DNA of 27,733 nt from a virus. Shown one piece after another: positions 4,992 to 15,020 of the stretch. Both the position numbers and the translations under genes were made by a program. The notes beneath the pieces are model-generated. The model did not search any database. It worked only from the letters and a program-made list of their open reading frames with translations, and was not told the origin of the DNA. The DNA is taken from UHGV virus genome UHGV-0042152; one strand, 5' to 3'. Every line of letters starts with the position of its first letter. The stretch's first letter is position 1.

Positions 4992-5195
4992 ATGAACAAC
5001 AAGACATGGTTTCGTGCATATGCATGGGCGCTGGTATGCGTCCTCGTCTCTCTCATTCTGTATGTAGGGGTACTCCCCCGAATGATTTCATCAGACAGCT
5101 CCTTCCTGGTATTGCTGGGCATTTTCATTGCCATGCTGTACCCGGCAGGCGTTGTTCGCCTTTTCAGTAAGTACATCAAGGAAATCAAACAATGA
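4992..5195 (+). CDS. Small inner-membrane protein (67 aa, two predicted TM helices), partner of SPFH protein
   Basis: Hydrophobic segments WALVCVLVSLILYVGVL and FLVLLGIFIAMLYPAGVV. Stop overlaps the start of the downstream SPFH gene (ATGA at 5192). Confidence 0.5.
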   Translation: MNNKTWFRAYAWALVCVLVSLILYVGVLPRMISSDSSFLVLLGIFIAMLYPAGVVRLFSKYIKEIKQ

Positions 5196-6022
5196 AGAAA
5201 TTCAGACTCTTTCAGATTCTCCCGCTTTTTGCCGCCATCCTGCTGGTTGGCTGCGATCGCGTTGAGCCAGGTAATGTGGGCATCAAAGTCAACAAGCTGG
5301 GCGACGACAAAGGCGTTGGCGAAGTGGTTGGCGTTGGCCGCTACTGGACTGGCTGGAATACCGAGGTTTACATCTTCCCGACCTTCAAACAAATGAAGAC
5401 CTACGATGACCCGTTCAGCTTCCAGATGAGTGACGGCACAACCATCGGCTATCACATCGGCGTGGCCTACAAGGTCGATCCATCCAAAGTTACCACAGTG
5501 TTTCAGACCTACCGCAAAGGCGTGGACGACATTACCGACACTGACCTGCGCCAGAAGATCGCCGACGCACTCAACCGACTGGCCAGCAAAATGACCACAG
5601 ATAAATTCATCGACGGTGGCAAGTCTGAACTGCTGGATTCAGCACTTAAAGATATTCAGGCAGAAATGACACCCATCGGCATTCAGGTAATGAGCCTCTC
5701 TTATGTCGGTAAACCGGAATACCCACCAACCGTGATCGACAGCATTAATGCCAAAGTCACAGCGAACCAGAAAACCCTGCAACGCGAACAGGAAGTAAAA
5801 CAGCGCGAAGCAGAAGCCAACATGTTGCGCGCAGAAGCTGCCGGACAGGCTGATGCCATTCGTACAAAAGCCCAGGCTGAAGCCGACGCCATTCGTTTAC
5901 GCGGTGAAGCTCTGCGCCAGAATCCCGGCGTTATGGAGCTGGAAGCGATTAACAAATGGAACGGCACGCTACCGCAATACATGACCAGTAACACCGCTGT
6001 TCCGTTTGTTCCGGTGAAGTAA
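5192..6022 (+). CDS. SPFH/band-7 (HflK/C-prohibitin-like) domain lipoprotein
   Basis: N-terminal lipoprotein signal with lipobox LLVGC. Central SPFH-like region followed by an Ala/Glu/Arg/Gln-rich coiled-coil tail (QREQEVKQREAEANMLRAEAAGQADAIRTKAQAEADAIRLRGEALRQ) typical of band-7 proteins. Confidence 0.7.
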   Translation: MKKFRLFQILPLFAAILLVGCDRVEPGNVGIKVNKLGDDKGVGEVVGVGRYWTGWNTEVYIFPTFKQMKTYDDPFSFQMSDGTTIGYHIGVAYKVDPSKVTTVFQTYRKGVDDITDTDLRQKIADALNRLASKMTTDKFIDGGKSELLDSALKDIQAEMTPIGIQVMSLSYVGKPEYPPTVIDSINAKVTANQKTLQREQEVKQREAEANMLRAEAAGQADAIRTKAQAEADAIRLRGEALRQNPGVMELEAINKWNGTLPQYMTSNTAVPFVPVK

Positions 6023-7064: not shown

Positions 7065-9887
7065 ATGACGGCAGAGTACATCAGGGACTGGCAACAACCG
7101 CGCCACGCAGTGGGTCGTGAAGGAACGGGAATCCCCGCTCCTGAATCCGAGCTTTCCTCCTGGCTGGATGCCTACCGGGCAGAGAACGAGCGCCGCCAGG
7201 AAATGGCTGATGCGGCGTTCTCCGCCACGCCGCTGGGCAACCTGATTAATAAAAGCCTGGACGCACAGGAAAAACAGGACAAAACCATCACACTGGCCAG
7301 AGAAGCCAGAAAACAGGCACGTGGCGCGGTGGATGAAGCCATGGCCTCGCTGCGCCTGCTGCCGTCCTATCTGCGCGATCCGCTTATTCGCCACCTCTCC
7401 TTCCTGCGCAAAAAACAGGAAGCCGATCGCCGGAAAGGCAAAAAGAGCTGGCAGGCGGAACGCTATGCACGCGGAACCCTGCGCAAAATATTCGAACGTC
7501 TGGATCGCACTGACGGACACTGGCTGACACCGGGTTATCGCTCCCTTGCCGGACGCGAACGCCTGGACGATTTGCTTTACCTGCCGCAGCTCAACAAACA
7601 CCAGATACAGACGCTGGCCACCATGACGGCGGCGATGTTCAGCAGCACCTTCGAAAAACTCTGTGATGGCTTTGGTGCCAGAGATGGCGAGCTGACCATG
7701 GATGTAACGCTGAAGGCGTATCAGATGCTGGCCCGCATGGCGTTACACCTGCACATCATGCCTCCACATTATGACGCACTGACAACAGATAAAGACCGGA
7801 GGAACGAACCGGACACGGAGCTGCTGCCGGGCGCAGTCCTTCGCCTGACCTGTGCGGAATGGTGGAAACGCAAACTGTGGCTGTTACGTTGCGAGTGGAG
7901 AGAAGAACAACTCCGCGCCGCCTGTCTGGTTTCCAGAAAAACATCACCCTATCTGAGCCAGGACGCGTTAAGCGAGTTTCGCGCACAGCGCGAGAAAACA
8001 CGCGATTTCCTGAAAAGTTTCATGCTGGAAAACGAAGACGGGTTCACGATTGATCTCGAGACAGTGTATTACGCGGGAGTAAGTAACCCGGTTCACCGTA
8101 AGGCAGAAATGATGGCCACCATGAAGGGGCTGGAACTTCTGGCCGAAGCCCGTGGCGACAAAGCGGTGTTTCTGACTGTCACCTGCCCGTCAAAATACCA
8201 CGCCACAACAGAGAACGGTCATCCGAATCCCAAATGGAACGGGGCCACCATGCGCGACTCCAGCGATTACCTGGTTAACACGTTTTTTGCGGCGGTCCGC
8301 AAAAAACTGAACCGCGACGGTCTTCGCTGGTATGGCATCCGCACGGTGGAGCCTCACCATGACGGCACCGTGCACTGGCATATGATGGTCTTTGCTCATC
8401 CGGAAGAAATCGACAGCATCGTGGCCATCACCCGCGATATTGCCATTCAGGAAGACCGCCACGAGCTGGGCAATGATATTACTCCGCGCTTTAAGGCGGA
8501 GTATGTCGACGGCTCAAAAGGCACACCAACCAGCTATATCGCGACCTACATCGGAAAGAACCTGGACAGCCGCGCCGTGGATGGCATCGACCCGAAAACG
8601 GGCAAGCCACGCGTTGACCACGAAACCGGAAAATCAATGGCCGAGAGTGTGGAGCGCGCCATCGGCTGGGCGCGCCTTCATCGGGTCCGCCAGTTCCAGT
8701 TCTTTGGCATCCCCCCCCGTCAGGTGTGGCGTGAACTGCGCCGCCTTGCCAGCCAGATGGCACGCAACCCGGAAGGCCCGCAACGACTGAAAGATGACGC
8801 AATGGATGCGGTACTCGCTGCCGCCGATGCCGGGTGTTTTGCCACCTACATTGAAAAACAGGGCGGCGTACTTGTTCCACGCAAAGACTACCTGATTCGC
8901 ACCGCCTACGACCTCGCAGATGAGCTGAATGATTACGGCGAACAGAGCGTACAGATTTACGGGATCTGGTCACCACTCATCGGGGAATCCTCCCGTGTGT
9001 GCACGCATCCGGATAACTGGAAACTGGTAAGACGTAAACCGGAAACGGAAGACAGCGCCCGCGAAAATGGTTTTGACCTTCAGGGCGGCCCTGCCGCCCC
9101 TTGGACTCGTGGCAATAACTGTCCCCGTGTACAGGAAACGGACAACAACGGGACAGAACAGCCGGAAGAACGGCCAGCACCGTGGCCGCAGCTTCCTGAC
9201 GGCGTTGACGTGAACGAATGGATGCGCTCACTGAAACGGCACGAACGCCGGGCGCTGATGCGTTCGCTGCGTGACAAACAGGCAAAAAACAGCAGTGATG
9301 AAATGCAGAGCTGGACACAGAGCCGCAAACAGCAGCGGCCTTTGCCTGATAACCACGAATTACTCGCTAAAGAATGGCGGGAATCTGCCGAATCTCTCGG
9401 CCTGCATATCGGTGAACAGCAGATGCAGCACCTGTTACGGGGCGGCAGCCTGTACGTTGACGGCAGCATCATTGCACCGCAGGGATTTGAAATTGTACGC
9501 AAACCGGATACCCGCCCGGACAGCCGAATCACGCAGCTCTGGCAGCGCCTGAGCCGTAATCACGGCGTAAGCAGCACGGAGATCCGCCATAACCCGGTCG
9601 CCAGCTATCTGGAACAGCTGGGGGCATCAGACCCCGAAGCCGCCGCACGTCTGGCATCCACACTTCAGCAGGACCAGAACACCATGACCCCCCCCGTTAC
9701 CGTGCTTTCTGACATGCTGCGCGCCATCCGCGACGCAGAGCACGCACAGAGAATCAGTGAAACCACTGAACGTGCCCGCCGCAAAGCAGACCTGCTGCGG
9801 GGTGGCCTGACCAGTGGAAACAAAAAACAGACAGAAACGGGATTCACAAATCCCGTAAATGAGCAAAAAACGCGCCGCGATATATGA
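7065..9887 (+). CDS. A: Replication initiation protein gpA (rolling-circle HUH endonuclease)
   Basis: Central region matches P2 gpA (VFLTVTCPSKYH..., VEPHHDGTVHWHMMVF HUH motif, YIATYIGKNLD catalytic-Tyr region). 940 aa versus 761 aa in P2, so the ends are diverged or extended. Confidence 0.9.
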   Translation: MTAEYIRDWQQPRHAVGREGTGIPAPESELSSWLDAYRAENERRQEMADAAFSATPLGNLINKSLDAQEKQDKTITLAREARKQARGAVDEAMASLRLLPSYLRDPLIRHLSFLRKKQEADRRKGKKSWQAERYARGTLRKIFERLDRTDGHWLTPGYRSLAGRERLDDLLYLPQLNKHQIQTLATMTAAMFSSTFEKLCDGFGARDGELTMDVTLKAYQMLARMALHLHIMPPHYDALTTDKDRRNEPDTELLPGAVLRLTCAEWWKRKLWLLRCEWREEQLRAACLVSRKTSPYLSQDALSEFRAQREKTRDFLKSFMLENEDGFTIDLETVYYAGVSNPVHRKAEMMATMKGLELLAEARGDKAVFLTVTCPSKYHATTENGHPNPKWNGATMRDSSDYLVNTFFAAVRKKLNRDGLRWYGIRTVEPHHDGTVHWHMMVFAHPEEIDSIVAITRDIAIQEDRHELGNDITPRFKAEYVDGSKGTPTSYIATYIGKNLDSRAVDGIDPKTGKPRVDHETGKSMAESVERAIGWARLHRVRQFQFFGIPPRQVWRELRRLASQMARNPEGPQRLKDDAMDAVLAAADAGCFATYIEKQGGVLVPRKDYLIRTAYDLADELNDYGEQSVQIYGIWSPLIGESSRVCTHPDNWKLVRRKPETEDSARENGFDLQGGPAAPWTRGNNCPRVQETDNNGTEQPEERPAPWPQLPDGVDVNEWMRSLKRHERRALMRSLRDKQAKNSSDEMQSWTQSRKQQRPLPDNHELLAKEWRESAESLGLHIGEQQMQHLLRGGSLYVDGSIIAPQGFEIVRKPDTRPDSRITQLWQRLSRNHGVSSTEIRHNPVASYLEQLGASDPEAAARLASTLQQDQNTMTPPVTVLSDMLRAIRDAEHAQRISETTERARRKADLLRGGLTSGNKKQTETGFTNPVNEQKTRRDI

Positions 9888-9933
9888 AGCGCACACAAAA
9901 CAGGCAAAAACGGGATTTCAGAATCCCGTAAAC
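9821..9933. repeat. Two ~40-bp imperfect direct repeats, each with an ACGGGATT-N4-AATCCCGT palindrome
   Basis: Copy 1 at 9821-9860 lies inside the last codons of gpA; copy 2 at 9893-9933 lies in the gpA-parM intergenic region. Palindrome cores at 9837-9856 and 9910-9929. Confidence 0.55.
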
Positions 9934-9963
9934 GATTAATTAATCAACATAAGGAAAAGCGAC

Positions 9964-10923
9964 ATGAAAATTTGTATCGACGACGGCTCCACCAACATCA
10001 AGCTGGCATGGACTGAGAATGGCGAACGCCGCAACGCCATCAGCCCGAACAGCTTCAAGTCGGAATGGTCTGCGCCGTTCGGTGGCATGCAGCCCGCGAA
10101 CTACATGCTTGATGGCGTGCGCTATGGTTTTGATCCGGTTAGCGATCGCTTTGTCCAGACGACCGACACGCAATACCAGTACAGCGATGTGAATGTAATC
10201 GCCATTCATCACGCGCTGGTCAAATCAGGCATCACGCCACAGGAGGTGGATGTGGTTGTCACCCTGCCACTGAGCGAGTATTTCGACACAAACGCACAGC
10301 CGGACATGGCCAACATCAACCGCAAAAAAGCGAACGTTATGCGCCCGGTGGAGTACCAGAACGGCGAAGCATTCACTATCCGTAACGTGCGGGTTATGCC
10401 TGAATCCATTCCGGCTGGCTTTAAGGCACTGGCTGACATGAGTCCGTTTGAATCCCTGCTGATTGTGGATTTAGGCGGAACCACGCTGGATGTGGCAAAG
10501 GTTCAGGGACAACTGGCAGGTATCAGCCAGGTGCTTTGCGATCCACACGTAGGCGTTTCCCTGATGGCCGATGCCGTACTGTCGGTGATGGCCACTAACG
10601 GTATGCGTACCAGTCACCACATCGCCAATACCATTATCGAACATCGCCATGATGAAGCCTGGCTGCGCCAGCACATCCACAATGACGCGCATTACGCCAG
10701 CCTGATGGCGGTTATTCGTGAAAAGGAAGAAACACTGAAACAACGCGTGATCCGCGCGCTGGCGGGTTTTTCGGGTTACGGGCGGGTGATGGTTGTCGGT
10801 GGCGGGGCAGAGATTGTGGCACCCGCTATCCGCGAAGCCTGCGGAGTTAATGCGACTTTCATCGCGGACGGGGTGCCACAGTTTGCTCTGGTTAATGGGC
10901 TGTACGCAATGGACAAGGAGTAA
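9964..10923 (+). CDS. parM: ParM/StbA-family actin-like segregation ATPase
   Basis: Strong similarity along the whole protein to plasmid R1 ParM as recalled (IDDGSTNIKL, ISPNSFK-EW, QYSDVNV-A-HHAL, VMPESIPAG, DLGGTTLD, GVSL, GGGAE, LVNG-Y). AAGGAAAAG RBS. Confidence 0.85.
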   Translation: MKICIDDGSTNIKLAWTENGERRNAISPNSFKSEWSAPFGGMQPANYMLDGVRYGFDPVSDRFVQTTDTQYQYSDVNVIAIHHALVKSGITPQEVDVVVTLPLSEYFDTNAQPDMANINRKKANVMRPVEYQNGEAFTIRNVRVMPESIPAGFKALADMSPFESLLIVDLGGTTLDVAKVQGQLAGISQVLCDPHVGVSLMADAVLSVMATNGMRTSHHIANTIIEHRHDEAWLRQHIHNDAHYASLMAVIREKEETLKQRVIRALAGFSGYGRVMVVGGGAEIVAPAIREACGVNATFIADGVPQFALVNGLYAMDKE

Positions 10924-10927
10924 ACCA

Positions 10928-11239
10928 ATGACGACACCAACCAGACGGATAAGTTTCTATCTGAAGCCCGCCGCCGTCAAGAACGAAGGCGAAGCATGCG
11001 CCTGGCTGGACAGCCTTACACCAGAAGCCCGCAAAAGTGGTCAACGCGTGGCTTTTCTGGCCGGGCTGGCACTACTGAAAATGAATCCGGCAGAGGCTTA
11101 CCGACTGGCTGCATGGGCTGATGATGAGGCGTTATCAATGACACAAACCAGGACAGAACGCCCCGCGTCACAGCCAGTATCAGCCGCACAGATAACCAGT
11201 CAGATGGCCGGAAATATCCGGGCGTTATTTCCCGAATAA
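10928..11239 (+). CDS. parR: ParR-like adaptor/centromere-binding protein (putative)
   Basis: Directly downstream of parM with an AAGGAG RBS. N-terminal region (RRISFYLKP...RVAFLAGLALLKMNP) resembles the R1 ParR N-terminus as recalled. Size is appropriate. Confidence 0.55.
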   Translation: MTTPTRRISFYLKPAAVKNEGEACAWLDSLTPEARKSGQRVAFLAGLALLKMNPAEAYRLAAWADDEALSMTQTRTERPASQPVSAAQITSQMAGNIRALFPE

Positions 11240-11244
11240 CACAA

Positions 11245-11268
11245 CATCAGGGCGCATCCGCCCTGATG
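11245..11268 (+). other. Perfect 10-bp-arm palindrome (CATCAGGGCG-CATC-CGCCCTGATG) just after the parR stop
   Basis: Read directly in the sequence. No U-tract follows, so more likely a protein-binding or RNA-processing site than an intrinsic terminator. Confidence 0.4.
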
Positions 11269-11302
11269 ACTTTAACCCGGGAGCATAAACAAGGGGGACA
11301 CA

Positions 11303-11635
11303 ATGCAACACATTGACAGAGAAAAAGCGCAGCGACTGATTGAGCGGATGGAAGCGCTGGCGAAAGAAGAAAATGTCAACATCCAAAAAATAGCTGAATG
11401 TGGCCAGATAGTTCTTCGTCGTGAAAAAGACCTCAAACAACTGATGTCTGGCGAAACCAGCAAAACATGGACTTCAGGCGAGAAGACGGTTTATTGCAGC
11501 TTCTGCAATAAATCCCAGTACGAAGTCACAAAGGTGATTGCCGGACCGTCTGTTTACATCTGCAATGAGTGCGTGGATTTGTGCAATGAAATTATCAGGA
11601 AAGAAGTGACAGACAAAAAGGAAAAAAACGCATGA
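11303..11635 (+). CDS. Stand-alone ClpX-type C4 zinc-binding domain protein (110 aa)
   Basis: C-terminal half [38 protein letters not shown] is near-identical in pattern to the N-terminal zinc-binding domain of ClpX (C-x2-C...C-x2-C). No AAA+ module follows. The N-terminal ~55 aa are coiled-coil-like. AGGGGGA RBS. Confidence 0.7.
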
Positions 11636-11946
11636 ACAGAAAACAGAAACAAGAGTTGAAATACTTCTTACGTAAAGAAATTGCCAGGCTTGAAGATGCA
11701 GAGTCACAATCATCAGAAATTCCGTTCGGAATGGATATCAACGACGCCCGTATGCTCCAGGCATACCGCATAGCTCAGGCTGCACTACAGGCAAAACCGT
11801 CAGATGGACTGGTTAGAGCGGTGCGTTTCTATGAACAGGTAAAGCGTGAGAATCCGCCAGTCGAAACCGGAGCATGGAAAGACGCTGTTGACTGGGTGCT
11901 CAAAGAGGCTTACCAGGCTGTAAACATTGGTACCAAAGGAGATTGA
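11632..11946 (+). CDS. Hypothetical protein (104 aa)
   Basis: Translationally coupled to the upstream gene (ATGA overlap at 11632). No motif recognised. Confidence 0.5.
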
Positions 11947-11947
11947 T

Positions 11948-12388
11948 ATGACCACTTTTACCGACAAAGAACTGATTAAAGAAATCAAAGAGCGCATAGG
12001 CAGCCTGGACGTCCGAGACAATATTGAGCGTCGGGCTTATGAAATTGCTCTGGCATCGCTGGAAGCAGAGGCAGTTATGTTCTGTATATCAGGACAAAAT
12101 GTAGATTCAGAAGAACATGTATCAACCAGCAAAGCGGTTGTTGATGCCTGGGTTGAAGAATGGAATCAGGTTGACGGAAGTCCTGGCGAACCACTGTACA
12201 AAACTATGCCACTCTACTATCACGCTGCCTTGCCAGCGCCGGTAGTGCCGGAAGAAGCAACTCCGGAAAACGTAGAAATGCTCTCTGGCTATGTTTCCAC
12301 GTACAAATTAACCGATAGCGAGCGCGATATTGCTGCCGAAATATGGAACGCCTGCCGCGCCGCTATGCTTCATGGGAAAGGAGAGTGA
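11948..12388 (+). CDS. Hypothetical protein (146 aa)
   Basis: ATG at 11948 with an AAAGGAG RBS. Previous stop is 2 nt upstream. No motif recognised. Confidence 0.5.
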   Translation: MTTFTDKELIKEIKERIGSLDVRDNIERRAYEIALASLEAEAVMFCISGQNVDSEEHVSTSKAVVDAWVEEWNQVDGSPGEPLYKTMPLYYHAALPAPVVPEEATPENVEMLSGYVSTYKLTDSERDIAAEIWNACRAAMLHGKGE

Positions 12389-12389
12389 T

Positions 12390-12653
12390 ATGGCAACTTT
12401 GACAAAAAAAGAACAAGCATGGTTGAGCGAATTACAGGACGTTCTTGATCGCTGTCCATCACCGAAAAAAATTGGTTTTTACACCATTGGCGATAAAAGC
12501 ATTTACCTGTATGACCTACGCCGCATGGATGAAATCATGGAGGCTCTTGATAATCGTTCGTCAATGGATTGGTGTGTTGCTGTCCATGATATGAATGCAG
12601 GGTTTGATGAAAAGATTTTGTTCCCCTCATCAGTTGAAAGCACAGCAGGATAA
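12390..12653 (+). CDS. Hypothetical protein (87 aa)
   Basis: ATG at 12390 with an AAAGGAGAG RBS. Tightly packed after the upstream gene. Confidence 0.5.
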   Translation: MATLTKKEQAWLSELQDVLDRCPSPKKIGFYTIGDKSIYLYDLRRMDEIMEALDNRSSMDWCVAVHDMNAGFDEKILFPSSVESTAG

Positions 12654-12686
12654 GGACCCAGCAAATATACACAACCTATAAAACAC

Positions 12687-12714
12687 TAAAGCGCCTCAGG
12701 GGCGCTTTTTGTTT
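12687..12714 (+). terminator. Rho-independent terminator ending the parM-to-small-ORF operon
   Basis: AAGCGCC-TCAG-GGGCGCTT hairpin followed by TTTTTGTTT. Confidence 0.65.
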
Positions 12715-12817
12715 GCACAAAAGTGCACAAATTTGCACAATTTTTTTGAACGACTTTTTACCCTTCCGGCCCGCATGGCGGCTGGATCCGTCAAGGATCC
12801 GTGCGTGCACAAAAAAA
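12711..12817. promoter_or_regulatory. Repeat-rich non-coding region (phased TGCACAA repeats and duplicated GGATCCGT)
   Basis: TGCACAA at 12714, 12724, 12734 (10-bp phasing) and again at 12807. GGATCCGT at 12784 and 12795 (11-bp spacing). Function unknown. Confidence 0.35.
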
Positions 12818-13104
12818 CGCGCTTTTTCTGCGCGCAGGTGACGGGGGAACAGCCCGCGTTTCAGGGGGTAAATAGCATTCCCTGAACGATGTCGCAGAGA
12901 CACAACAGAATGGCCATATTTCTCACGCTGAGCATGAAAAAGGCGTGAGGGCTTTTGATTTGATGGGGTGAAAGGTAAGGCCGTCAAAATCGCACTGAGG
13001 CAGCGAGAACATGCAGTCAACGCGGTGGAATTGCGTAAGAGTCTGACCGTCGATGGTGGCGATAAACTGGAAGGCGTCGTGAAATTATCTGATTGATACA
13101 GGAG

Positions 13105-13236
13105 NNNNNNNNNNNNNNNNNNNNNNNNNNNNNNNNNNNNNNNNNNNNNNNNNNNNNNNNNNNNNNNNNNNNNNNNNNNNNNNNNNNNNNNNNNNNNNNN
13201 NNNNNNNNNNNNNNNNNNNNNNNNNNNNNNNNNNNN
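13105..13236. other. Run of N (masked or unsequenced, 132 nt)
   Basis: Literal n characters in the sequence. Confidence 1.
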
Positions 13237-13343
13237 GGCGGGGCGAAGCAGCAGACAAGCGAAGCGCGTCAGCGATACGGCACCTTGCCGACCATACTTC
13301 ATAAGTGCAAAATACGAGCAAAGAAATCAATGGAGGCTGTCTT

Positions 13344-13880
13344 ATGGTCATTAATTACAAGCAGTTAAGAGAAAAACGGGAGCAGGTAAAGGAGAGCTTT
13401 CGCCGCAATGAAGATCTGACCCCGCTTGTACGCCTTGCCCAGGGCATTGTTGATGCTTATGAAATCTCGCTGGAGCTGCCATCACAGACCTGGACAGATA
13501 GCGACGGTAATCGCCAGCATTACGTTTCATGCGGACTGGAAGCAGCCGAAGGATTTCGCAGAATGCCTTTATCCCAGATCCCTGCCGCTACCCCCAAAGC
13601 ACGGGGCAGCAATGATGAGCGAAAACTGACTTTTAGTATTGAAACGGTGGTTGACGACACACCTGGCGAAGTCGCGTTCGTGCACACTCCTGTTTCGATC
13701 GCAATGTATAACGATGAAATACAGGTTCGCGTTAATAATAATATCGTGCCACTTAAAGAAGGTAATTCACCCTACACCACCGTTTGTGAAGCCATTCAAT
13801 ATTACGTTCTCTCTGAAATTGATAATCTCAAGCCTGACGGCACCCAGAAAGGTCATGCACAACGCGTACCCGTGAAAACC
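13344..13880 (+). CDS. Hypothetical protein, 3' end hidden by N-run (at least 179 aa)
   Basis: ATG at 13344 with a GGAGG RBS 6 nt upstream. Continuous reading frame to the N-run at 13881. Occupies the position adjacent to cos/portal where P2 carries old. Confidence 0.4.
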
Positions 13881-13968
13881 NNNNNNNNNNNNNNNNNNNN
13901 NNNNNNNNNNNNNNNNNNNNNNNNNNNNNNNNNNNNNNNNNNNNNNNNNNNNNNNNNNNNNNNNNNNN
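13881..13968. other. Run of N (88 nt) at the expected position of the cos site
   Basis: Literal n characters. In P2 the cohesive-end site lies immediately beyond the 3' end of portal gene Q, which here ends at 13974. Confidence 1.
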
Positions 13969-13973
13969 CCCCA

Positions 13974-15020
13974 TCACGGGGCTGTTTTTTCATCAAGAAG
14001 AGCATAAGAGTTAAAACGGATCACCTCTTCGCCAAGCCAGTCATTGATGTGCTTCATAGCCTCCATAACGGGCATCAGCTCGTTAATTGCGTAAACCCGC
14101 GCTGCCTTCTCCACATCGCCAAACGCACTTTTTTCGCCCGGCATCGCCCCCATCAGTTGCGGCGGAACGCGGTGCGCAGCCAGCACATCATCACGGGATG
14201 CCGCCTTAACATTCATGAATTCATCTTTTGCGGTGATCTGCTGGAACGGCAAAATTTGCACCCCCTCTTTGCCCCCGTTGGGCGCATGAATGAGCACGTT
14301 TTTAAACGCACCACCACCACGTGCCCCCTGTAGCGTTTCTTTCAGGGAGTCCATGCTTTCGCGGTTTACCTGCGCTGCACCGATGTAGATGATGCACCCG
14401 GCGTGGGATCCGTTGTCGTAGTACAGTTTTCTGAACATGTCCGCCGAATGAGAAAGGCTGGCCGAGAGTAATGCGCCAAGATATTCCGGCATGCCGTAGA
14501 TTTCCTGGTTAATATCCGGATTCATCAGGTGGCACACTTTGCCAGGACGAAACTGAAACGCGTCCTTGCCATCCTGCACATACCACCATGATTCAAGATC
14601 GCTTCCGCGTCGCATGTATTTCGCCAGGGCGTGCCGTAATTTAAGCGGTTCGCCGAGCATATTGCTTCGAAGCTCAAGGAATGCGTTACCGAACACAAAC
14701 CAGTCCAGCGCCAGCGCCGAGAAATCCTGCCGGGAAAGCAGCGGGTGCGGGATGTAGCAACCGAGTAATACATTGCGCTTAAAGTAAAGCGCAGACTGAT
14801 GCCAGGACGTTTGCCGGGCTGCTCTTGCCAGACCGTACCAGTCCACCGGGGTTTCATACCACCGCCCGTTATCAGCACAGTACATATTGTCCAGCAGGTC
14901 ATGCCCGGTCAGGCGATAAGGACCATCAAATGTGAATGCACTGAGCGATGATTCTTTCCTGAGCGCATCAGCGAGATCAATGCGTGAACTCATGCGCACT
15001 TTTTTATTTTTTCTGCTCAT
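13974..15020 (-). CDS. Q: Portal protein gpQ
   Basis: 348 aa (P2 Q is about 344 aa). Minus strand, immediately downstream of and overlapping terminase gene P, as in P2. Confidence 0.85.
   Translation of the reverse strand: MSRKNKKVRMSSRIDLADALRKESSLSAFTFDGPYRLTGHDLLDNMYCADNGRWYETPVDWYGLARAARQTSWHQSALYFKRNVLLGCYIPHPLLSRQDFSALALDWFVFGNAFLELRSNMLGEPLKLRHALAKYMRRGSDLESWWYVQDGKDAFQFRPGKVCHLMNPDINQEIYGMPEYLGALLSASLSHSADMFRKLYYDNGSHAGCIIYIGAAQVNRESMDSLKETLQGARGGGAFKNVLIHAPNGGKEGVQILPFQQITAKDEFMNVKAASRDDVLAAHRVPPQLMGAMPGEKSAFGDVEKAARVYAINELMPVMEAMKHINDWLGEEVIRFNSYALLDEKTAP

Follow-up and report, generated by a model that had tools for sequence, protein, structure and literature searches.

The virus genome UHGV-0042152, a 27,733-nt stretch called the window here at its full length, is a P2-like prophage with an integrase (P88-like type; Xuanwuvirus, Peduoviridae), and directly downstream of the replication gene A it encodes an actin-type partition gene pair, parM and parR. 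Our favoured reading, taken with moderate confidence, is that this pair belongs to a functional type II ParMRC segregation module, which P88-like and related P2-like phages carry as a lineage-specific component and which acts on the transient circular form of the phage genome. The module is real and, judged from its sequence, probably functional. The observation itself and the episome hypothesis attached to it are already known: the pair is annotated in RefSeq and PHROGs, and it was remarked on by Pfeifer 2021 (PMC7969092) and Rousset 2022 (PMC9122126), where an episomal state was suggested. The present analysis adds a deep, monophyletic association with P2-like phages, a pattern of selection, a conserved two-site candidate for parC, a likely expression from the early operon and a strong bias towards chromosomal copies.

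The parM and parR genes

The parM gene (9964-10923, plus strand) encodes an actin-fold ATPase of 319 residues, in which the Pfam domain StbA_N (E = 2.7e-82) and the ParM C-terminal domain (E = 2.8e-68) were recognised. The original prediction, made from the letters of the sequence, had described this protein as a close ParM homologue, and the comparison bears this out: residues 2-316 align with ParM of plasmid R1 (PDB 1mwk) with 47% identity (E = 3.4e-92), and the protein matches PHROG 691, annotated as 'partition protein', from end to end. Loss of the conserved actin-fold ATP-binding residues had been named as an observation that would speak against a partition system. In the alignment with 1mwk all motifs are intact, with identical or conservative residues in the phosphate-1 (DDGSTNIK), catalytic (MPESIPAG), phosphate-2 (DLGGTTLD) and adenosine (GGGAE) motifs, so that such a loss did not occur. 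In 14 members of the P2-associated ParM clade, down to 53% identity, the key positions of the motifs do not vary.

To describe selection on the pair, P88-like loci with high tblastn identity were gathered, 80 of them from IMG/VR and the others from genome, phage and plasmid records. An intact open reading frame (ORF) of 319 codons was present in 86 of the 86 loci, which together carry 67 nucleotide alleles of parM. The median pairwise ratio of nonsynonymous to synonymous substitution rates (dN/dS) was 0.049, and parM is under strong purifying selection.

The second gene, parR (10928-11239, plus strand), encodes a predicted centromere-binding adaptor of 103 residues. What had been noticed as a ParR-sized protein downstream of ParM proved to belong to the Pfam family PF10784 (Plasmid_stab_B, E = 2.5e-24), with an end-to-end match to PHROG 2515, 'partition protein'. 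Its start is most likely the ATG at 10928, and not the TTG at 10793 that had been listed for the ORF; this ATG lies 4 nt past the parM stop, is preceded by an AAGGAG ribosome-binding site and is also the start given in RefSeq. When a profile of the P88-type ParR family was compared with known structures, the best PDB match was ParR of plasmid pB171 (2jd3, E = 0.008).

Constraint along ParR is uneven. The N-terminal 62 residues are conserved, with a ratio of nonsynonymous to synonymous polymorphism (pN/pS) of 0.135 and with R6-R7-I8 and F10-P14 invariant over 45 alleles, and conservation is strong in the C-terminal tail, NI(R/Q)xLFPE, of the different ParR classes (pN/pS 0.06). Between them lies a hypervariable linker of about 30 residues (pN/pS 0.50). 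Type II ParR proteins, such as those of R1 and pB171, consist of a domain for DNA binding and dimerisation, then a flexible linker and a C-terminal peptide that binds ParM, and the pattern of constrained ends and a relaxed linker appears to match this expected architecture. Two major classes of ParR, A and B, were distinguished; they share the first 18 codons and the C-terminal tail, diverge after residue 18 and are about 56% identical. Among 72,556 PLSDB plasmids, no tblastn homologue of the P88-type ParR (E ≤ 1e-3) was detected except in P88-like copies, and the protein thus appears to be a private lineage without a plasmid homologue at the level of BLAST.

The parR gene was also observed to be a recombination mosaic, with breakpoints inside the gene (from 10982 onward in the window; 5129-5443 in locus L003). 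The cargo downstream of parR differs between the ParR classes.

Candidate parC sites upstream of parM

Repeats had been reported at 9821-9933, upstream of parM, and they do exist. They are two direct repeats of 43 nt, each of which contains a 20-bp palindrome of the form ACGGGATT-N4-AATCCCGT, and the two palindromes are 73 bp apart. In the first candidate parC site (repeat 9820-9862), the palindrome ACGGGATTCACAAATCCCGT at 9837-9856 is located inside the 3' end of gene A, where it overlaps the last codons. The second site (repeat 9893-9935) has its palindrome, ACGGGATTTCAGAATCCCGT, at 9910-9929 in the intergenic region between A and parM, 34 nt upstream of the parM ATG. The palindrome pattern has exactly two matches in the 27.7 kb of the window against a chance expectation of 0.10, and two matches were found in none of 100 shuffled sequences. 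The two palindromes are likely to be the parC centromere.

Over 84 P88-like loci, conservation covers the half-sites GGGAT(T/C) and AATCCC, and the variation falls mostly in the 4-nt centre. The palindrome variants were not seen to co-vary with ParR class (A or B), the same sites accompanying both classes; this is consistent with the identical N-terminal segment that the two classes share. The arrangement extends to more distant relatives. In a Plesiomonas phage, the ParM of which is 62% identical, a homologous CGGGA...CCCG pair is spaced 72 bp apart, with the first element, as in the window, in the 3' end of gene A and the second preceding a homologous TTAATCAA...AAGG leader. A Hafnia phage has GGGATT-N4-AAACCC and GGGTTC-N4-AAATCCC, again 73 bp apart. 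Comparison with a relative that is devoid of parMR places the left boundary of the parMR cassette at about 9895, which is the start of the second repeat.

A further hairpin, with a perfect 10-bp stem, stands right after the parR stop (11245-11268) and resembles a terminator for minus-strand transcription only. The hairpins at 9837-9856, 9910-9929 and 11245-11268 all have intrinsic-terminator scores on the minus strand only, and the three might stop antisense read-through from the leftward portal and terminase operon into the early region.

Distribution and evolutionary depth

The original prediction rightly placed the pair in an integrase-carrying P2-like prophage, as seen from the integrase (50-1057), gpA and the P2-type portal and terminase. 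It also held a partition system to be unexpected on such an element, and this was overstated. The module is present in 1308 of 5426 complete Escherichia coli genomes, and about a quarter of E. coli P2-like prophages have it (Rousset 2022, PMC9122126); the pair is annotated in the databases and the episome idea has been published; and the SrpMRC (PMC4489591) and AlpAC (PMC4446434) systems are experimental precedents on integrative elements. Fourteen records of cultured phages contain the module as well, including P88, P884B11, Citrobacter phage phiSM and phage 520873. The stretch 9800-11300 of the window is 100% identical to the chromosome of E. coli MS 198-1 and 98% identical to phage P88 (genus Xuanwuvirus).

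The next relatives of ParM, with 54-62% identity, were found in Plesiomonas shigelloides, Hafnia, Serratia and Enterobacter ludwigii. These distant P2-type loci came from a search for protein homologues and from the contigs encoding them, as a scan of contigs with a single ParM gave only three near-identical loci. All five contexts examined, the window included, are P2-like prophages with the same layout: parM follows gpA either directly or after one or two small ORFs, the PF10784 protein comes next, and the portal gene lies beyond. In a neighbour-joining tree of 106 ParM homologues, the P2-associated ParMs form one clade, which is sister to, and separate from, plasmid ParMs including that of R1, and a member of the sister group sits on a plasmid-like contig. 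Within the lineage of P88-type A genes, only the last of 40 evenly spaced hits was without parMR. The conserved synteny, the single clade, the linkage to the A gene and the plasmid-free ParR together argue that the module is not sporadic cargo of a hotspot. It is an old and vertically retained part of a P2 sub-lineage, with a ParR/parC specificity that appears private to it.

Two other occurrences of related genes were recorded. On the chromosome of Dickeya poaceiphila (locus L012, 8001-9373), a ParM with 49% identity and a PF10784 ParR are located within an integrative and conjugative element (ICE), adjoining TraG_N and TraU and close to an integrase, which adds a further integrative element to those that carry an R1-type ParMR. 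A P88-type parM with 97% identity was also found on a 226-kb contig labelled Vagococcus sp. WN89Y (NZ_JBQPOM010000071.1). The most likely source of this copy, under a Gram-positive label, is a contaminated or wrongly labelled assembly.

Expression context

No sigma-70 consensus promoter with 9 of 12 matching positions or better was detected between 8386 and 11681, which means that an autoregulated promoter within parC was not found at this threshold either. Between gene A and parM there is no plus-strand terminator, and the first strong plus-strand intrinsic terminator downstream of gene A lies at 12688-12708, the likely end of the parMR transcription unit. The absence of a sigma-70 match of this quality upstream of parM is common to all five P2-type loci (the window and four others). 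The same scan gave matches of 9-10 of 12 upstream of parM in a plasmid locus (L093) and in the Dickeya ICE locus.

With no promoter or terminator found between A and parM, expression of parMR probably follows that of the early replication operon; the arrangement suggests that the genes are read through from the early (cox...A) operon that expresses gpA. As parMR would then lie inside the early unit without a promoter of its own, we infer that it is made when the genome is extrachromosomal and replicating, and not in the repressed prophage.

Chromosomal and episomal copies

In the complete E. coli genomes, 1454 of the 1456 copies of the module are chromosomal. The element in the window has an integrase, and these records do not bear out a phage-plasmid lifestyle (as in P1, N15 or SSU5), in which the prophage is maintained extrachromosomally as a plasmid. 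A single phage-sized circular record was found in PLSDB, NZ_CP148288.1 (pZ1323PEC0009-2, 34,461 bp; locus L001), and it is a complete P88-like genome with integrase. It comes from a cat isolate, and a human isolate of the same project, Z1323HEC0067, has a 100%-identical phage integrated in its chromosome, so that the circular record is in keeping with an excised or induced form. The E. coli genome collection used here does not include the chromosome of the cat isolate itself. A transient circular form is expected of any active prophage. These observations do not support a stable plasmid lifestyle of P88-like phages.

The other episome candidates in PLSDB were rejected, being either non-credible, mislabelled 'plasmids' of 0.4-1.4 Mb or large plasmids with an integrated copy. 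A 26.7-kb Shigella 'plasmid' was likewise set aside as a linear, unplaced contig ridden with insertion sequences.

Comparison with known systems

The closest described system is ParMRC of plasmids R1/NR1, in which ParM is also called StbA and ParR is called StbB. The same ParM Pfam domains, the 47% identity and the nucleotide-binding motifs link the two ParM proteins, the ParR described here is in the same family, PF10784, as those of R1 and pB171, the latter of which its family profile matches, and the order parC-parM-parR is common to both. The differences are in the replicon and in the details of the centromere. The host here is an integrating P2-like prophage rather than a low-copy plasmid, the candidate parC consists of two palindromes instead of the 10 direct iterons of R1 and has no consensus promoter, and ParR is of a private lineage for which no BLAST-level homologue was found on plasmids. 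Among tailed temperate phages, StbA/StbB of the P1-like phage D6 are also comparable, D6 StbA being 47.5% identical to the ParM described here. Phages of the P1-like type, D6 among them, persist as plasmid prophages, whereas P88-like phages have an integrase and are found integrated.

Two further systems, both characterised by experiment, operate on integrative elements. SrpMRC of the SXT/R391 ICEs is expressed only on activation, has a centromere of four short repeats and stabilises the excised form, which replicates as a rolling circle (Carraro et al. 2015, PMC4489591). As in the case presented here, an actin-type partition system is carried by a normally integrated element; a centromere of few short repeats, the lack of constitutive expression, the tie to the activation and replication programme and the action on a transient circular form would be shared as well. 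SrpM is, however, distant from R1 ParM and SrpR has no recognisable domain, while both proteins of the window are clear members of the R1 family; the function of SrpMRC, on an ICE, has been demonstrated, while the module described here is viral and known from sequence. In the Corynebacterium glutamicum prophage CGP3, AlpAC/alpS is induced early, and its adaptor binds upstream sites and links circular phage DNA to filaments; the phage DNA is replicated efficiently only with this system (Donovan et al. 2015, PMC4446434; PMC5539076). Like the prophage of the window, CGP3 is integrated and codes for a filament former of the actin type together with a DNA-binding adaptor, the two being co-transcribed, as is probable for parMR. 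The host phylum and the phage type are different, and the adaptor comes first in the alpAC operon. With regard to the phages that carry the present module, the P88 paper makes no mention of it, and the phiSM paper merely lists it as a 'fitness' gene.

Proposed mechanism

In the favoured model, ParR would attach as dimers to the two CGGGATT-N4-AATCCCG palindromes, which lie on either side of the end of gene A, and its conserved C-terminal tail would capture filaments of ATP-bound ParM. Growth of the filaments would then push apart or position circular phage genomes. In P2, gpA starts rolling-circle replication at an origin inside gene A, and the products are circular monomers, so that parC would adjoin the origin on a plasmid-like substrate. 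The two proteins would be made once the phage has infected a cell or has been induced and excised, but not while the prophage is integrated and quiescent. The benefit may be of either of two kinds: the few early circles could be distributed to daughter cells before integration or commitment, in a manner similar to SrpMRC, or replicating circles could be organised for efficient replication and packaging, as with AlpAC. A long-term plasmid prophage would not be sustained by parMR under this model. The two roles that the original prediction had proposed, stabilisation of an extrachromosomal phase and positioning of phage DNA, remain the most plausible ones.

Several observations weigh against this model. 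With respect to the centromere, the Serratia and Enterobacter phages differ from the other relatives in that the motif 'CAGGCAAAAA(C/T)GGGAAC' is kept but as a long inverted repeat, and the first site persists in a relative without parMR. Each palindrome also scores as a minus-strand intrinsic terminator, and the palindromes could for this reason be RNA or terminator elements instead; a search for RNA elements in and around them gave no Rfam family at the gathering score within 9000-14200. Two sites are also far fewer than the 10 iterons that make up parC in R1. With respect to the proteins, the AlphaFold (AF2) monomer model of ParR is poor, with a predicted local distance difference test (pLDDT) score of 59 and residues 1-17 unstructured, and a ribbon-helix-helix fold was therefore not confirmed. 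Truncated ParM clusters of 188-261 residues, with hundreds of members each, exist in the protein database and indicate that ParM decays in some lineages, and the choice of the 86 loci by high tblastn identity biases that sample towards intact copies. The inference on promoters comes from a consensus scan, and a weak or ParR-regulated promoter is possible. No experimental study of the module was found in the literature searched.

Alternative explanations

A different lifestyle was proposed in the literature (PMC9122126, PMC7969092), namely that ParMRC and gpA-driven replication keep non-integrated P88-like phages for many generations as low-copy plasmids. The layout of replication gene, parC and parMR is indeed plasmid-like, the circular record NZ_CP148288.1 is a complete P88-like genome, and the Plesiomonas phage occupies a 32-kb contig made up of phage alone. 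We nevertheless consider such a dual lifestyle unlikely. Nearly all copies in complete E. coli genomes are chromosomal, the phage of the circular record is also found integrated with full identity in the sister-study strain, the remaining PLSDB hits are the mislabelled megabase-scale records, large plasmids with an integrated copy and the linear Shigella contig described above, and an integrase is present in every element examined that has a visible left end. In P2, moreover, the early operon with gene A is repressed in lysogeny, and Cox-driven excision commits the phage to lytic growth. A related version, in which P88-like P2-type phages are facultative integrative phage-plasmids that gpA rolling-circle replication and ParMRC keep as a heritable low-copy episome, or carrier state, when integration fails or attB is unavailable, is regarded as unlikely too; if true, it would explain why a P2 sub-lineage has kept a private ParR/parC specificity across the Enterobacterales.

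It is also doubtful, and decidedly improbable in our view, that the pair is lysogen-benefit cargo of the variable P2 hotspot with a role other than partition, such as interference with phages or plasmids (e.g. by centromere-based incompatibility) or an effect on the host cytoskeleton or chromosome segregation. The cassette does lie in the hotspot between A and the portal gene, where defence systems accumulate (Rousset 2022, PMC9122126), and both the variable cargo downstream of parR with breakpoints inside that gene and the 'fitness' listing for phiSM would agree with such a role. ParM, ParR and six neighbouring proteins had no PADLOC match, however, which led us to reject their reading as a defence system, and unlike typical lysogen-expressed morons the pair has no detectable promoter of its own. 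Cross-talk with the centromeres of resident plasmids is unlikely, as the tblastn matches of the P88-type ParR on plasmids were confined to P88-like copies. Over a range of 54-99% ParM identity the pair keeps its place beside gpA, which fits a role linked to phage replication better than swappable cargo. Finally, the cassette could be a non-functional relic, captured once from a plasmid and since then hitch-hiking in a phage lineage that has been successful. Databases commonly contain truncated variants of ParM, parM is fragmented in one phage record (503458) and a derivative without parMR exists, but this explanation is disfavoured by the selection analysis and appears very improbable: the dN/dS of parM is low, selection on parR follows its domain structure, the ATP-binding motifs are invariant in a clade that has diverged to 54% identity over four further genera, and the upstream two-site architecture is conserved.

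Other genes of the prophage

The gene order (int, C, cox, A, portal, terminase, capsid) and the identity to P88 place the prophage with the P88-like phages of Xuanwuvirus. A tyrosine integrase with the Pfam domains Int_N and Phage_integrase (50-1057) and a helix-turn-helix repressor (1112-1507) are both encoded on the minus strand, and a Cox-like protein is present. The replication initiator gpA (7065-9887, plus strand), located directly upstream of parM, is a 940-residue protein of the GPA family (Pfam Phage_GPA, E = 2.5e-131) and matches PHROG 91, 'nicking at origin of replication'. From 13974 onward, P2-type portal, terminase, scaffold and capsid genes follow, as annotated from a near-identical record.

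Directly downstream of parR, the plus strand encodes a 110-residue protein (11303-11635) that carries a stand-alone ClpX-type C4 zinc finger (PF06689, E = 6.8e-18; PHROG 6797, unknown function). By mimicking the N-terminal domain of ClpX, such a phage-borne copy could titrate the adaptors or substrates of ClpX. Three small ORFs come after it (11632-12653, plus strand) and correspond to PHROGs 660, 5117 and 1714, of unknown function and ead/Ea22-like in other annotations. An ead/Ea22-like gene lies directly downstream of gene A in the relative without parMR (locus L002, 6110-6699). Within the early operon of the prophage, a protein of the SPFH/Band 7 family (PF01145, E = 1e-30) is encoded at 5192-6022 on the plus strand. 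Two masked runs of N, at 13105-13236 (132 nt) and 13881-13968 (88 nt), come after the early-operon terminator and before the portal gene, in a region expected to contain the cos site and hotspot cargo.

Significance

The module is found in about a quarter of sequenced E. coli genomes. If an episomal carrier state were true, the boundary between prophages and phage-plasmids would blur further. If instead its target is the short-lived circular form of the phage genome, AlpAC and SrpMRC would have a counterpart in a Gram-negative, genetically tractable host, and actin-type segregation machinery would be a regular part of the replication programme of some integrating phages.

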